A stretch of DNA of 52,748 bases from Escherichia phage LF82-19: sequence record PV660457. One strand, 5' to 3'. A model generated the notes under the pieces. That model searched no databases and was not told the DNA's origin. It was given only the letters and a program-made list of their open reading frames with translations. The stretch's first letter is position 1; each line of letters begins with the position of its first letter. The translations under genes and the position numbers were made by a program. This document shows positions 23,013-49,267 of this stretch, piece by piece.

Positions 23013-23498
23013 ATGCCGCACATCATCACAGGTGAGATCAAAAAAGCCCCGTACACCAAAGACGGAAGCAACAATAACGGGCGATGGAAAATGTACATTG
23101 TCGATCTGAGTGAGCGCATGAAAGTGCGCAACCCTGACACACAGGCCGATGAAGTTGTTTACACAAACTACAAGGCAACCTTCTTTGCAAAAGAAAACGT
23201 CATGCAGTGGTACGATGAAGCGTTCCAGGTTGGCAAGGTAATCAGCGTAACGTGTGACACGCTGCAAATCACCAGCCGAGATCACAACGGCAATACGTAT
23301 CTTACGGCTGAAATGATCCGGCCTCAACTGACCTTCAGCCAGCGAGAGGCTCAGCAGCAGGGATGGGGGCAACCACAGCAGCCGCAAGGCAATCAGCAAC
23401 AAAGCCAGCACAGACCACCACAGCAGCGACCACAGCAGCGACCACAGCAGCAACAGCCACAGCAGGGAAATCAGTTTGACGATGACATTCCATTCTGA
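23013..23498 (+). CDS. ssb: single-stranded DNA-binding protein
   Basis: C-terminal DDDIPF acidic tip, the E. coli SSB-type tip, preceded by Gln/Pro-rich linker; OB-fold-sized N-terminal domain. Confidence 0.7.
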   Translation: MPHIITGEIKKAPYTKDGSNNNGRWKMYIVDLSERMKVRNPDTQADEVVYTNYKATFFAKENVMQWYDEAFQVGKVISVTCDTLQITSRDHNGNTYLTAEMIRPQLTFSQREAQQQGWGQPQQPQGNQQQSQHRPPQQRPQQRPQQQQPQQGNQFDDDIPF

Positions 23499-23509: not shown

Positions 23510-23535
23510 AAAGGAGCCTTTCGGCTCCTTTTTTA
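23510..23535. terminator. bidirectional terminator between ssb and tail fiber
   Basis: AGGAGCC-tttc-GGCTCCT then TTTTTTATTT. Confidence 0.55.
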
Positions 23536-25752
23536 TTTCAGCAATAACGACTCAAGTTTAGCAAGGCGCTCTTCCATTTCCTCCATTCTGTTACCCATGT
23601 AAACCATAGCACAGGCCATATCAGTAAGCATGACGTTTGAATCAAGAGCTAGCGTATCGTCCTTAAATCCAGTCTCGATCTGCCTGGCAACGTACTCCTC
23701 ACCATTCTCGTTGACTCCGATAACATCTTCAAAGATCGGAGCGCCAGGGACTACTTTCACATACTGACTATCAACTTTATTCAAGTCCTGAGCAATCAGA
23801 CCGAATCTCTGTGTGTCAGATCCCTTATACTTGAACATGGTTGGGAGCCACTGCATTACGCGATCATAGCTCTCCTTTCCTTCGGTGTATTTGATATCCC
23901 ACTTAAGATCCCGGTCAGACGTTGGCGCTTTCTGGAATGTATACCCCCCATCCCATCCTCCACCCTGACCCCATGAGATAATATCTGATGATGGTGCATG
24001 GAATTCAAATCCGCGATGGTACGCACCATCACCAAGCATCTTAATTACTGCGCGAGGCCATCCGTTGTTCCCGCTAGAAATCATACCAAGAGAGGTATTC
24101 ATTCGATACCCGCCAGTTGATGTGGTTGCCCCTGAGATCAATGAAGCATATCCGGCATCATTACCCGTTACATCACCAGCAAAGAACGTACTCCCCATGT
24201 AATCATTTGGCTGCGCCCAACCTCCTTGAGTTAACTTACCAAGAAACCCCCTTGGAGAAGATATGTGACCGCCGTATGAGTTTATGAATTTAAACTCCTT
24301 CCAGTCACTTCCTTGGTTGTTCACTCCGATCTTGAAGTGATCAATATCAGTGCCACTACCGCGAACCCCCCCAATCTGCCAGTAACCAGAGTACCAGTTA
24401 CCTTGAACCAGGTTAACCCAACTATTAACAGAGCCATCACCAGCAGCGTTTTGAATCAGGATGTTTTTGTTTCCGCCACTCTGAGTTGAAACAACGATCG
24501 ATTTACCCTGCTTTGCCTCTACGTTTCCGTTTGTTGCAACCAGAGCGCCGCCGCTAATCGTTCCGACGGCTGTCAGCGATGCAACTCCGGTAATGTTCCC
24601 CGCCTCATCAAACTGATAGTAGTTCCCCTTTCCTCCAGCCGTGTTTGCCGTGTGAATCGTTGTCTTTACAACGCCGCCTTGTAGTTCATTGTAAAATCTT
24701 GAGTTTGATTGCAGCGTTGCGCCGTCAGCAGAAAGCCTTTTACTCTCAATCAGCCCCCCACTAGTTGCTGAGCCAAGTGTTGTAGCCTCCACGCCTCCAA
24801 ATCTCACCGCTTGACCCGAGCCGATACCAAGATTGTTTCTTGCTCCGTCAGCAGTTGTTGATCCAGTGCCACCAGATCCGATAGGGATCGGGATTACATT
24901 TCCGTTACTATCCTGCCACTGGAAAATCCCATCATCGCCAATCGTCAGCCTTTTTGTTCTATCTGGCGTGCTAATGTAGTTACGCGTTCCAATGTGGCGC
25001 AGCCAGTCAAGATCAAGGTTCGTCCTCGCGGCTTGTACGTCAGTAAGATCAGATAGGTTATTTGCCTTCTTTAGCTGTTCGTCAGGGTTAGCCGTTGCTG
25101 CGCGGTCTGCTTCAGCCTTGGCTCGTGCTGCATCGTCACGAGCGGCGGCGGCAGATTGCCCGGCGCTGGTTTCGCTGTTTGCTGCATTCGTCTCGCTTAC
25201 CCTGGCGGCATCCTTGCTGGCTCCGGCTTGGGTTGCGGCAACTTCGGCGGCAACGCGTTGCTGATAAGCTTGCTGGTTCTGGCTTCCGGCCTCGCTTGCA
25301 CTTTGTGCGGCGGCGTTCTTGCTTGCCTCAGCTTCGTTTGCGTTAACTTCAGTACGATCAGCATCAACGCGAACGGCAGACTGAAGATCTTTCAGCTCTT
25401 GCAGGTTAAAGTTCTTGAAGAAATCCATAGCCTCCTCGATCACAGTTTCCTTGCTTTGGTAGTAGCGCAGAGTTTCAGCCACATCTTGAGCAAGGCCATC
25501 AACAGTGATTGAGTCATGCAGCAGGATTACATAGTTCGTACCATCCGGCACAACTGCATCATCCGTTTGGATCGCTCGCATTTCCGTGTCACTCACGATC
25601 GCGGAAATAGTAACCAGCGTTAGTGGTTGAGTTAAAAACACCATCGTTGCCCCAACGCGAATCAGAGACAGCTTGTCTTGCCATTTCGTATCAACGCCAG
25701 TTACAACGCCGTTAGCGGCCAATCCCGCCGTTCCTCTACGATAAATCGCCAT
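23533..25752 (-). CDS. tail fiber with C-terminal peptidase S74 intramolecular chaperone domain
   Basis: C-terminus DRDLKWDIKY ... GLIAQDL ... LAKLESLL typical of the autocleaving chaperone domain of fibers/endosialidases; Gly/Ser/Thr-rich beta-like middle; start at ATG 25752. Confidence 0.75.
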   Translation of the reverse strand: MAIYRRGTAGLAANGVVTGVDTKWQDKLSLIRVGATMVFLTQPLTLVTISAIVSDTEMRAIQTDDAVVPDGTNYVILLHDSITVDGLAQDVAETLRYYQSKETVIEEAMDFFKNFNLQELKDLQSAVRVDADRTEVNANEAEASKNAAAQSASEAGSQNQQAYQQRVAAEVAATQAGASKDAARVSETNAANSETSAGQSAAAARDDAARAKAEADRAATANPDEQLKKANNLSDLTDVQAARTNLDLDWLRHIGTRNYISTPDRTKRLTIGDDGIFQWQDSNGNVIPIPIGSGGTGSTTADGARNNLGIGSGQAVRFGGVEATTLGSATSGGLIESKRLSADGATLQSNSRFYNELQGGVVKTTIHTANTAGGKGNYYQFDEAGNITGVASLTAVGTISGGALVATNGNVEAKQGKSIVVSTQSGGNKNILIQNAAGDGSVNSWVNLVQGNWYSGYWQIGGVRGSGTDIDHFKIGVNNQGSDWKEFKFINSYGGHISSPRGFLGKLTQGGWAQPNDYMGSTFFAGDVTGNDAGYASLISGATTSTGGYRMNTSLGMISSGNNGWPRAVIKMLGDGAYHRGFEFHAPSSDIISWGQGGGWDGGYTFQKAPTSDRDLKWDIKYTEGKESYDRVMQWLPTMFKYKGSDTQRFGLIAQDLNKVDSQYVKVVPGAPIFEDVIGVNENGEEYVARQIETGFKDDTLALDSNVMLTDMACAMVYMGNRMEEMEERLAKLESLLLK

Positions 25753-25775
25753 TGTCAACACCTCTTGTTAGTAAA

Positions 25776-46780: not shown

Positions 46781-47485
46781 ATGAGCATTCAACGCTACTA
46801 CCCTGAAGTGAAGTACACAGTGCGGGAAACTCGCGTTAATATGGCTCCACACGAGCGCGGAAGCTATGTGACCTATGAATCACACATCGAAGAATTGCGC
46901 CGCGTACAGGCCGAATTAGACGCCTTAAAAGCGATGCAAAAAAGCGATTTTTTCTATCACCTAAAGCCAGTCTTCGAAAAGGCGCTTGAAGAGGCGATTG
47001 CTATCGTCGTGAAGCAAGCCAGCCAATCAGTTTTCAAGGTTGACGCTGAGGCGCTAATTGCTGCTGACGTTGGCCGTTGGATGGAGAAGCACATGAACGA
47101 GCGCGCCGGATTTGCAACTGGCAGCCTGTTTGTGGGTGATGTAGAGGTTGATTTCGACAACAACAAAGTCAAGATCACCGATGCGCTAATCAAGAGCGGC
47201 GTTGTGACTGAAAGCGAATTATTCTCTTTCCCTAAGGCACGAAAGAACATTGTCGTTTGCACAAGCGCCGATGAAGGTAGCGGTTTCACTATTGGAAAGA
47301 AATACGCATTCGATCGCAATGAAGGGAACATTATCCGAATCTGCCAGGATGATTTTGTTTCAGATCTCGCAGAGGATGATTGCTGGATTGCAAGCCGCCG
47401 CCGAAACCTGGTAAGCGGTGAATTCAGATACTTCTTACAGGGGCATACAGAAGGCAAGCGCGCATCTTTCGAGATCGTTGAATAG
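46781..47485 (+). CDS. hypothetical protein with C-terminal MKVKC-family-like segment
   Basis: 234 aa; internal VVCTSADEGSGFTIGKKY matches the family motif. Confidence 0.5.
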   Translation: MSIQRYYPEVKYTVRETRVNMAPHERGSYVTYESHIEELRRVQAELDALKAMQKSDFFYHLKPVFEKALEEAIAIVVKQASQSVFKVDAEALIAADVGRWMEKHMNERAGFATGSLFVGDVEVDFDNNKVKITDALIKSGVVTESELFSFPKARKNIVVCTSADEGSGFTIGKKYAFDRNEGNIIRICQDDFVSDLAEDDCWIASRRRNLVSGEFRYFLQGHTEGKRASFEIVE

Positions 47486-47525
47486 CACGAATTGTTAAAC
47501 GGGCATGTGTTCCGACTGGTATCAT
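47483..47525 (+). promoter_or_regulatory. palindrome TAGCA-N5-TGTTA plus -10 TATCAT
   Basis: 22-nt gap; CCGACTGGTATCAT resembles 45175 and 49742 copies. Confidence 0.5.
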
Positions 47526-47555
47526 GTGCCAACACAAACAAGCAAGGGGCTTTAA

Positions 47556-47723
47556 ATGTTCGAAGAAAAGAAACACAGGCCGGAACAAGCTTACTCAAGG
47601 GTATCACGCACCGTTAAAGAGCGTAGGCGCTGGGTTAAGTATTTCATGAATCAAGGCCACACCAGATCGGTTGCGATTGGCCTGGCTAAGTGGGCAACAA
47701 ACAACTACAACGGGAAAAACTGA
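47556..47723 (+). CDS. small basic protein (55 aa)
   Basis: MFEEKKHR ... ; stop overlaps next ATG (TGATG); not listed separately in track. Confidence 0.35.
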   Translation: MFEEKKHRPEQAYSRVSRTVKERRRWVKYFMNQGHTRSVAIGLAKWATNNYNGKN

Positions 47724-48355
47724 TGAACTTTCAAATGTACACTATGATCAAGCATCACTTACTTACTCATCCAGATCAGCCAGTCTACATCTTCGACTAT
47801 GACGGCACGCTTTCGGATGGCTCTCACCGACTGGACAAGTTGCCAACAAAAGATTTGCACCTCACCGAAAGCTGGGAAGAGTTCAATCGCCTTGCTTCAT
47901 TCGATGAGCCGATCGAAACAACCATTCAGGTGATGAATTCACTTTATAAGGCTGGCGCTTTCGTTATCGTGTTAACCGGGCGCGCCGATAGCGTTGTTGA
48001 AGAGTCAACACAATGGCTGCATGATGCTGGGGCGAAATATACAGTGATGGTGATGCGTGGGCGTGACGACAATCGCAAGGACACGATCATCAAGGAGGAA
48101 TTCTTGCGCTACATCGGACTTGAGCGAATTACAGCGGCGTGGGATGATAGCCCAAAAGTGATCGAGCATTTCCGATCGCTGGGCATCACAACCTACCAGG
48201 TTTGTGATTATGGCGATAAGACTCACGCGCATCTACAGTCACACGGCGTGAAAGATGCTGGCGGAGAGTGTGAGCATATTTGGGAGCGTCACAGTATTGG
48301 TGACGATTATTATGAATGCTGTGTTTCATGCGGCAGATCAAGAGGCATTAAGTAA
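47723..48355 (+). CDS. HAD-family phosphatase (polynucleotide 3'-phosphatase-like)
   Basis: FDYDGTL (DxDGT) motif I near N-terminus; start at 47723 not 47690. Confidence 0.6.
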   Translation: MNFQMYTMIKHHLLTHPDQPVYIFDYDGTLSDGSHRLDKLPTKDLHLTESWEEFNRLASFDEPIETTIQVMNSLYKAGAFVIVLTGRADSVVEESTQWLHDAGAKYTVMVMRGRDDNRKDTIIKEEFLRYIGLERITAAWDDSPKVIEHFRSLGITTYQVCDYGDKTHAHLQSHGVKDAGGECEHIWERHSIGDDYYECCVSCGRSRGIK

Positions 48356-48963
48356 TGGCAACTATCATCATTCTGAATGCGCCGCCGCGCGCCGGGAAAG
48401 ACACGATCGCGAAAATCATCGACGAGCAATACGGCTTGCCAGTTGTGAGCTTCAAAACTCCGATGTTCAACATTGCTCGCGGCATCTTGGGCGAAGCGGA
48501 TTTTAAAGAGTTCATGGCGGTTTACGAAACAGACCGCAAGGACACACAGCCGTTAAGTATTCTGCATGGCAGCACTTGCCGCGAGTTTATGATCTGGATT
48601 AGCGAATCCGTGATTAAGCCTCATTTCGGCAAGAAGCATTTCGGCTGGCTTATGGCTGATTTGCTCAGCGAAATGGAGGATGATGTTGATCTCACAATTT
48701 GCAGCGATGGCGGGTTCCCGGATGAGGTAGAGGCGTTGATTGACTTCGGGCACCGTGTCAAGCTGGTTCGTATGCACCGTGAAGGCTTCGACTTCTCGAA
48801 AGATAGCCGTGACTACATCTACCTTTCCGAAGAGTACAAGAGCAAGCCTGGTGTTGTTGAGTTCGATCTGACATTGCAGGACGGTTGCCCTAATCTGGCT
48901 GCTGAGACTATCGCGTCATTGTTCATTGCCCATCATAAACCAGATAACGAGATCCCTTGGTAA
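48355..48963 (+). CDS. P-loop kinase (polynucleotide or nucleotide kinase-like)
   Basis: Walker A-like NAPPRAGKDT; ATGA-coupled to the phosphatase. Confidence 0.55.
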   Translation: MATIIILNAPPRAGKDTIAKIIDEQYGLPVVSFKTPMFNIARGILGEADFKEFMAVYETDRKDTQPLSILHGSTCREFMIWISESVIKPHFGKKHFGWLMADLLSEMEDDVDLTICSDGGFPDEVEALIDFGHRVKLVRMHREGFDFSKDSRDYIYLSEEYKSKPGVVEFDLTLQDGCPNLAAETIASLFIAHHKPDNEIPW

Positions 48964-48964
48964 A

Positions 48965-49007
48965 TAGCACTTTTTGTTAAACCCGCTTCGGCGGGTTTTG
49001 TTATTCT
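48965..49007 (+). promoter_or_regulatory. palindrome plus terminator-like hairpin plus -10 TATTCT
   Basis: TAGCACTTTTTGTTA-AACCCGCTTCGGCGGGTTTTG-TTATTCT; inverted duplicate of 37133-37175. Confidence 0.5.
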
Positions 49008-49036
49008 TGCTTTAACGAAACGAAATGGAGTGAAGA

Positions 49037-49267
49037 ATGAAAACTTTATCAGAGCTGAAGTCGATCGCGGCTGACTTGCAGGAGCGAATGAAGCCACTAA
49101 ACCACAAGCTGGAAAACTCGCGCATTACTATAGCCTCAAGAATGTCTATCGAGTGCTCACTGCGCGAACTTAAAATCATGTGGCATGATGCCATGTGCGA
49201 CGTTCACGCTCACCCTGAGTACGAAGGTGAGTTTAAATTCCAGAAAGAAAACAACCCATACCGATAA
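49037..49267 (+). CDS. hypothetical protein
   Basis: 76 aa. Confidence 0.4.
   Translation: MKTLSELKSIAADLQERMKPLNHKLENSRITIASRMSIECSLRELKIMWHDAMCDVHAHPEYEGEFKFQKENNPYR

Follow-up and report, generated by a model that had tools for sequence, protein, structure and literature searches.

Two plus-strand open reading frames (ORFs) fill the interval 47723-48963 of the 52,748-nucleotide stretch of Escherichia phage LF82-19 DNA analyzed here (record PV660457; hereafter the window). They raise the question of whether a phosphatase gene followed by a kinase gene represents a split polynucleotide kinase/phosphatase (Pnk), as a sequence-only reading of this DNA had proposed, or whether the two enzymes serve the phage in another way. 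According to our analyses, these two early genes most likely serve nucleotide supply, rather than being an RNA-repair enzyme split in two. Both ORFs were present as proposed. Since 324 homologues of the phosphatase and 163 of the kinase were found in the database at E≤1e-3, and since the kinase family comprises 3,679 representative clusters, we regard both as conserved genes and not as chance ORFs.

Genomic context and transcription unit

The order given by the sequence-only reading, phosphatase and then kinase, was correct on the plus strand, but the gene overlaps that it described were borne out only in part. A TGATG overlap exists (47721-47725) but joins a 55-aa ORF to the phosphatase gene, and the ATGA overlap is absent: the junction between phosphatase and kinase is TAATG (48353-48357), with a one-base overlap, and a Shine-Dalgarno sequence (AAGAGG) is located 9 nt 5' of the kinase ATG. 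Such overlaps suggest that translation of the phosphatase and the kinase would be coupled. The 55-aa ORF is probably the first cistron on the phosphatase-kinase transcript. Neither this ORF nor a 234-aa ORF had a Pfam or PHROG match, and homologues were found in none and in one of 80 related loci, respectively; both ORFs, which lie a short way 5' of the pair, appear to be lineage-specific early genes. Sixteen nucleotides 3' of the kinase stop codon lies a strong terminator-like hairpin (48979-48998; 8-bp stem with 5 GC pairs) with the tail TGTTATTCTT, and the pair therefore seems to end its transcription unit. A domain ('VCTS...GKxY') that several neighbouring small ORFs seemed by eye to share was not supported by all-against-all blastp at 1e-3.

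Escherichia phage LF82-10 (PV660453) and three sibling isolates are 100% identical to the window over positions 47400-49100. The annotation of PV660453 includes terminase, siphovirus tail genes, a RecE-like exonuclease, Erf, SSB, primase, helicase and Dam-type methylases, and neither a DNA polymerase nor a ligase is found among the 83 features that it lists at positions 1-50000. We read this annotation as that of a T1-like phage. PV660453 exceeds the window by 147 bp (49 codons), a difference located in the tail-fibre gene; up to that point the coordinates of the genes otherwise agree, and the change in length looks like receptor-binding variation between sibling isolates.

Table 1. Features of the window discussed in the text, by position.
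Feature	Position	Strand	Remark
SSB	23013-23498		ends FDDDIPF
Tail-fibre gene	23533-25761	-	differs in length from PV660453
phrog_704 'DNA repair exonuclease', 378 aa	31747-32883	+	phrog_704 at 4.8e-149
Cys-rich protein, 79 aa	38093-38332	-	ends CKDEIPF
234-aa ORF	46781-47485	+	
55-aa ORF	47556-47723	+	TGA stop overlaps phosphatase ATG as TGATG
Standalone Pnkp-type HAD phosphatase, 210 aa	47723-48355	+	GenBank label 'polynucleotide kinase'
HAD motif I, D25-Y-D27-G-T29 (DYDGT, codons 25-29)	47795-47809	+	nucleophile and acid/base aspartates
C-terminal Cys/His mini-domain of phosphatase (C183, H185, C199, C200, C203; CxH...CCxxC)	48269-48331	+	
T4 gp1-like P-loop kinase, 202 aa, putative (deoxy)nucleoside monophosphate kinase	48355-48963	+	
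P-loop A-P-P-R-A-G-K-D-T	48379-48405	+	gp1/phosphomevalonate-kinase-type GKD replaces GK[ST]
Flexible acidic C-terminal tail DNEIPW of kinase	48943-48960	+	resembles SSB C-terminal tip
Intrinsic-terminator-like hairpin and T-rich tail	48979-49008	+	16 nt past kinase stop

Domain assignment of the phosphatase and the kinase

The first protein had been described as a HAD phosphatase with a DxDGT motif, and this description proved accurate. The motif is present as DYDGT, and the protein scores 63 bits in the Pfam family HAD_PNKP (PF25109), where the cutoff is 27.6 (E = 4.3e-17; positions 3-139 of the 143 in the profile are covered), and matches phrog_415 at 2.8e-62. Its only clear sequence relatives in the PDB are the phosphatase domain of T4 Pnk and Pnkp1 of the Pnkp1/Rnl/Hen1 repair complex. 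By structure comparison its fold is closest to solved Pnkp phosphatase domains, and the proteins most similar to it in structure are all enzymes of polynucleotide ends. Motif I aligns with D165/D167/T169 of T4 Pnk and is invariant in 26 of 26 aligned sequences. All twelve T4 Pnk residues that were checked find counterparts in the alignment with T4 Pnk: D165, D167, T169, R176, D187 and S211 correspond to D25, D27, T29, R36, D61 and T85 of the window protein, and R213, R246, D254, K258, D277 and D278 to R87, R112, D120, K124, D141 and D142. Ten of these T4 residues (D165, D167, R176, D187, S211, R213, D254, K258, D277 and D278) we take to be essential in T4 Pnkp on the strength of mutagenesis by the Shuman laboratory. 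Across the phosphatase family, HAD motifs I-IV and the window residues D25, D27, R36, D61, T85, R87, D120, K124, D141 and D142 are conserved. Judged from its sequence, the protein is a genuine Pnkp-type HAD domain, and the label 'polynucleotide kinase', which is widespread on proteins of about 160-245 aa, is misleading because they consist of the phosphatase domain only and have no kinase domain.

The standalone phosphatases form a clade with a highly conserved insert after motif I (HRLxxLPTKDLHLTESWxEFN) and a conserved C-terminal L-x-SHGV motif. The Cys/His mini-domain at the C-terminus is found only in a subset of the homologues; the AlphaFold model has a three-stranded sheet at residues 187-209 (pLDDT 70-81), and the mini-domain is likely an optional zinc-binding knuckle.

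The second protein matches phrog_139 end to end (2.7e-42, residues 1-188), and phrog_31701 is its only other PHROG match. T4 gp1 matches phrog_139 over the same profile span (1.8e-65), whereas T4 Pnk matches phrog_505 and phrog_2071, neither of which is matched by the window kinase. In both structure searches the best match was T4 gp1 (PDB entry 1DEK). Human phosphomevalonate kinase, which shares the GKD-type P-loop of the window kinase, ranked third; Pnk or RNA kinases were not the closest fold in these searches, and no PNKP chain was among the structural matches listed. The fold is of the two-domain gp1 type with a GKD P-loop. In our family alignment (A1), this loop shows no variation at G14, K15 and D16 and next to none at T17; the corresponding sequence in T4 gp1 is RSGKDT. 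In T4 Pnk, Asp35 after strand 2 is the acidic general base that activates the 5'-OH. By a positional analogy drawn by eye, the kinase family has an invariant lysine (K34) where this acidic residue would be expected.

Several other sequence comparisons of the kinase were confined to the P-loop. Pfam returned sub-threshold P-loop matches only (PF21448 DNMK with 12.2 bits against a cutoff of 27.1), and PDB sequence searches with the single sequence or the A1 profile were uninformative, giving adenylate kinase and AAA ATPase matches at the P-loop level. Aligning A1 by hhalign to a single T4 gp1 or T4 Pnk sequence did not discriminate between them, as the P-loop alone was aligned for both (25 residues in the case of T4 Pnk). 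The dNMP-binding residues of gp1 include K37, R68, R132, M135, D175, R177, E181 and D204 (PMC10653934, Table 2), and R177 binds both the phosphate and the base of the dNMP (PMC10653934). An HMM built from 258 family members aligned gp1 residues 128-197 with the conserved core of the kinase, at a weak score of 13.9 bits overall. In this weak-scoring alignment, R132, M135, D175, E181 and R197 of gp1 pair with the invariant or near-invariant R76, M79, D118, E124 and R139; D204 was paired with D150 by eye, beyond the HMM alignment. R177 coincides with an invariant glycine (G120), K37 is out of register and R68 is unaligned.

Taken together, fold and family membership indicate that the kinase resembles the T4 gp1 deoxynucleotide kinase rather than T4 polynucleotide kinase. 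The sequence-only reading had itself named two findings that would speak against a split Pnk. One of them, a kinase aligning better with dNMP kinases, is what we obtained, as shown by phrog_139 with T4 gp1 and by 1DEK as the best structural match. The other, a phosphatase of the sugar-phosphatase type, is not, since the protein passes HAD_PNKP and has the Pnkp-type residues. Thus, the phosphatase half of that proposal holds and the kinase half, which is gp1-like and not Pnk-like, does not.

A less canonical form of end healing deserves consideration at this point. The HAD protein would remove 3'-phosphates or 2',3'-cyclic phosphates, and the gp1-like kinase would be a 5'-OH polynucleotide kinase, the two acting in DNA or RNA break repair, possibly together with a metallophosphoesterase, while a host ligase seals the break. 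That the phosphatase has its closest relatives in Pnkp1 and T4 Pnkp, both enzymes of RNA/DNA repair, and that every polynucleotide-phosphatase residue checked is retained, favours this explanation, which we nevertheless consider unlikely. The lack of an RNA ligase noted by the sequence-only reading was upheld at the sensitivity available, with annotation, Pfam scans and tblastn all negative: none of ten hypothetical ORFs scanned with Pfam, including all four of at least 200 aa, contained a ligase domain, and tblastn with T4 RnlA gave nothing below E=0.26. The 234-aa ORF, considered as a divergent ligase, was rejected, as it has no KxDG motif in addition to the lack of matches described above. 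A literature search for defence-related phenotypes of the phosphatase and kinase genes found nothing relevant. Krischvirus JSE (L085 3998-4474) encodes a 158-aa standalone Pnkp-type phosphatase with 35% identity to the window protein, whose gene overlaps the nrdB stop codon about 1.1 kb 5' of denA and is labelled 'polynucleotide kinase' despite having no kinase domain. JSE also encodes complete pseT and rnlA, and its standalone phosphatase is therefore no substitute for Pnkp. A role in nucleotide supply is favoured over RNA repair because JSE has this phosphatase in addition to pseT and rnlA, because no ligase was detected in the window, because the kinase looks like a mononucleotide-type enzyme, and because T1 and TLS reuse host nucleotides (see below).

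Gene order, fusions and a third gene

We compared 80 IMG/VR loci containing a gene for a kinase homologue. In 75 of them the phosphatase gene lies 5' of the kinase gene on the same strand; of these, 38 have the two side by side, and 37 have small genes spanning 0.49-2.1 kb in between. In Kagunavirus K1ind2, which is not a T1-like phage, the phosphatase and kinase genes overlap within a three-gene cassette located in the structural module. When 1.84 billion representative proteins were searched with a profile for kinase relatives, 3,679 representative clusters were obtained. Almost all of these are standalone, but two, P0259 (403 aa) and P0266 (461 aa), are phosphatase-kinase fusions, in which a HAD_PNKP/phrog_415 domain at the N-terminus is followed by a phrog_139 domain at the C-terminus. 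The fusions look real and not like artefacts, as they are less than 50% identical to each other and yet have a linker motif in common, and as two or more samples yielded P0259, the longest contig measuring 60.7 kb. A Pbunavirus 'polynucleotide kinase/phosphorylase' (phrog_4889) was examined as a second kind of fusion and rejected, since the 190 aa at its C-terminus show no relationship to the window kinase. This 342-aa protein of Pseudomonas phage crassa (L089 2504-3532), with an N-terminal HAD_PNKP domain and an uncharacterised C-terminal domain, is encoded between the thyX and DNA polymerase genes.

A third gene accompanies the pair in several phages. The phrog_704 protein of the window has the motifs DLH, GGD, GNHD and GH, which we read by eye as those of a calcineurin-like metallophosphoesterase; no Pfam or PDB sequence match was found apart from a weak N-terminal match to a Sigma70_r4-type HTH (Pfam E 0.007). 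It is 43% identical to the product of the gene beside fusion P0259 (L087) and likewise 43% identical to that of the gene immediately 5' of the phosphatase gene in K1ind2. Of the 80 loci, 21 have a phrog_704 gene directly 5' of the phosphatase gene and on its strand. The gene recurs beside the pair or a fusion in unrelated phage backbones (L086 2389-4555; L087 8001-10500). In the window it is located 15 kb from the pair, 5' of the lysis cassette.

Gene order, natural fusions and a co-localising third gene argue that the phosphatase and the kinase are functionally linked. The opposite view, that the two have separate jobs and merely travel together in the early region, would have the kinase boost dNTP synthesis while the phosphatase, for example, destroys a 3'-phosphorylated or cyclic-phosphate defence signalling nucleotide or repairs phage DNA ends. 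It draws on the small genes that split the pair in 37 of 75 loci, and in TLS, too, the phosphatase (gp09) and kinase (gp14) genes are set apart by other small genes (PMC11447400). Moreover, distant kinase homologues such as those of rV5-like and Erwinia phages have no annotated phosphatase under or beside the match, and the JSE phosphatase gene is located beside nrdB with no kinase among the JSE genes shown. Nonetheless, 75 of the 80 loci and two different groups of phages keep the same order and strand, and two diverged fusions with a conserved linker argue for a common pathway or complex, which makes separate jobs improbable in our view. The fusions also speak for end healing, because their domain order is that of mammalian PNKP, and the label 'DNA repair exonuclease' on the metallophosphoesterase points the same way. 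The fusions and the metallophosphoesterase neighbour tie a Pnkp-type 3'-phosphatase to a mononucleotide-kinase fold, and no described pathway accounts for this tie.

Probable role in nucleotide supply and relation to known systems

With moderate confidence, we interpret the pair as a nucleotide-supply module of a T1-like lytic phage. In this interpretation, the phosphatase would most likely remove 3'-phosphates from DNA breakdown products (3'-phosphate ends, deoxynucleoside 3',5'-bisphosphates and 3'-dNMPs), so that fragments could be digested further and 5'-dNMPs would be left as kinase substrate; the likely nuclease partner would be the metallophosphoesterase 'exonuclease'. The diverged T4-gp1-type kinase would then convert 5'-dNMPs from degraded host DNA to dNDPs, and host Ndk would convert these to dNTPs for the host polymerase that replicates the polymerase-less phage. 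What the analyses establish are the families and folds, the conservation of active-site residues and of gene order, the fusions and the co-localising third gene; we infer the substrates, the way in which the flux runs, a connection with the breakdown of host DNA and the translational coupling. T1 and TLS degrade the host chromosome, reuse its nucleotides and depend on the host polymerase (PMC11447400).

Several observations run counter to nucleotide supply. The kinase shares only 16% identity with gp1, the Pfam DNMK profile matches its P-loop only, and, within the weak 13.9-bit alignment, an invariant glycine replaces gp1 R177 and K37 is out of register. Salvage of 5'-dNMPs has no obvious need for a 3'-phosphatase, and the structural relatives of the phosphatase act on polynucleotide ends. 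Finally, small genes split the pair in nearly half of the ordered loci, and the nuclease gene of the window is distant. A variant in which the HAD protein is a (deoxy)nucleotidase acting on selected mononucleotides, while the kinase pulls the other dNMPs forward and the dNTP pool is thereby biased in favour of the phage, is very unlikely: the phosphatase residues checked are all of the Pnkp type, no modified-base or pool-exclusion pathway is evident in the annotation of PV660453 (positions 1-50000), and if phosphatase and kinase had the 5'-dNMPs as a common substrate, the result would be a futile cycle. If the nucleotide-supply interpretation is true, the window offers a routine case of a host-DNA-degrading lytic phage with its own dNMP kinase. 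T4 and T5 likewise bring their own dNMP kinase, and that of T7 is gp1.7.

Of 120 close homologues, 67 have the acidic tail of the kinase, as against none of 147 distant ones; the family consensus is DDIPW, and residues 191-202 have a block-mean pLDDT of about 60. The SSB of the same phage ends in a similar sequence, and the C-terminus of the 79-aa Cys-rich protein is a third SSB-tip-like one in this phage (Table 1). These tails may dock the kinase, SSB and the 79-aa protein onto SSB-tail-binding partners, which suggests a route by which a polymerase-less phage could bring dNTP synthesis to the host replisome. Phosphatase, kinase and phrog_704 metallophosphoesterase could even be one three-enzyme machine, whose genes are found apart, in a contiguous cassette or with phosphatase and kinase fused, and that either heals DNA breaks with 3'-phosphate and 5'-OH ends or channels 3'-phosphorylated products to dNDPs, and that in T1-like phages docks at the fork via the SSB-mimicking DDIPW tail. 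We put this forward tentatively, as a possibility of rather low probability; in its DNA-healing version it would employ a kinase fold that is not known to act on polynucleotides.

Compared with T4 gp1 (1DEK; 241 aa), the window kinase is shorter (202 aa), is only 16% identical and has the invariant glycine in place of R177, with the Pfam DNMK match restricted to its P-loop, and T1-like kinases add the acidic ...DDIPW tail. The window phosphatase differs from T4 Pnk (1LTQ, 5UJ0) and Capnocytophaga Pnkp1 (4XRP) in that it is standalone, without a Pnk-type kinase and without an Rnl or Hen1 partner, and in its extra insert after motif I, its L-x-SHGV motif and its optional Cys/His mini-domain. The contrast drawn earlier to T4 Pnk, which is a single chain with the kinase preceding the phosphatase, is correct, as the window has separate polypeptides with the phosphatase first. 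Mammalian PNKP, a DNA 3'-phosphatase/5'-kinase, has its HAD phosphatase before its P-loop kinase, an order common to the window pair and to fusions P0259 and P0266. In PNKP the kinase is of the T4 Pnk family, whereas that of the window is gp1-like and the window pair has no FHA domain. The closest known counterparts are the 'PNK' and 'dNMP kinase' genes of the Drexlerviridae T1, TLS and KanT1, which by their annotations belong to the same two gene families, and GenBank entry PV660453 carries sequences identical to the window pair under these names. A 2026 survey of 522 Drexlerviridae describes genes arranged as exonuclease-PNK-dNMP kinase and proposes that this arrangement improves the supply of nucleotides (PMC13164509). 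Both the gene pair and its interpretation as a nucleotide-supply module are thus already in GenBank and in the literature (PMC13164509; PMC11447400), and the accessible parts of these two articles contain no mention of the fusions or of the cross-family triad. What the present analyses add to these known systems, as modest leads and not as a discovery, are the natural fusions, the three-gene set outside the T1-like phages and the SSB-like tail of the kinase.
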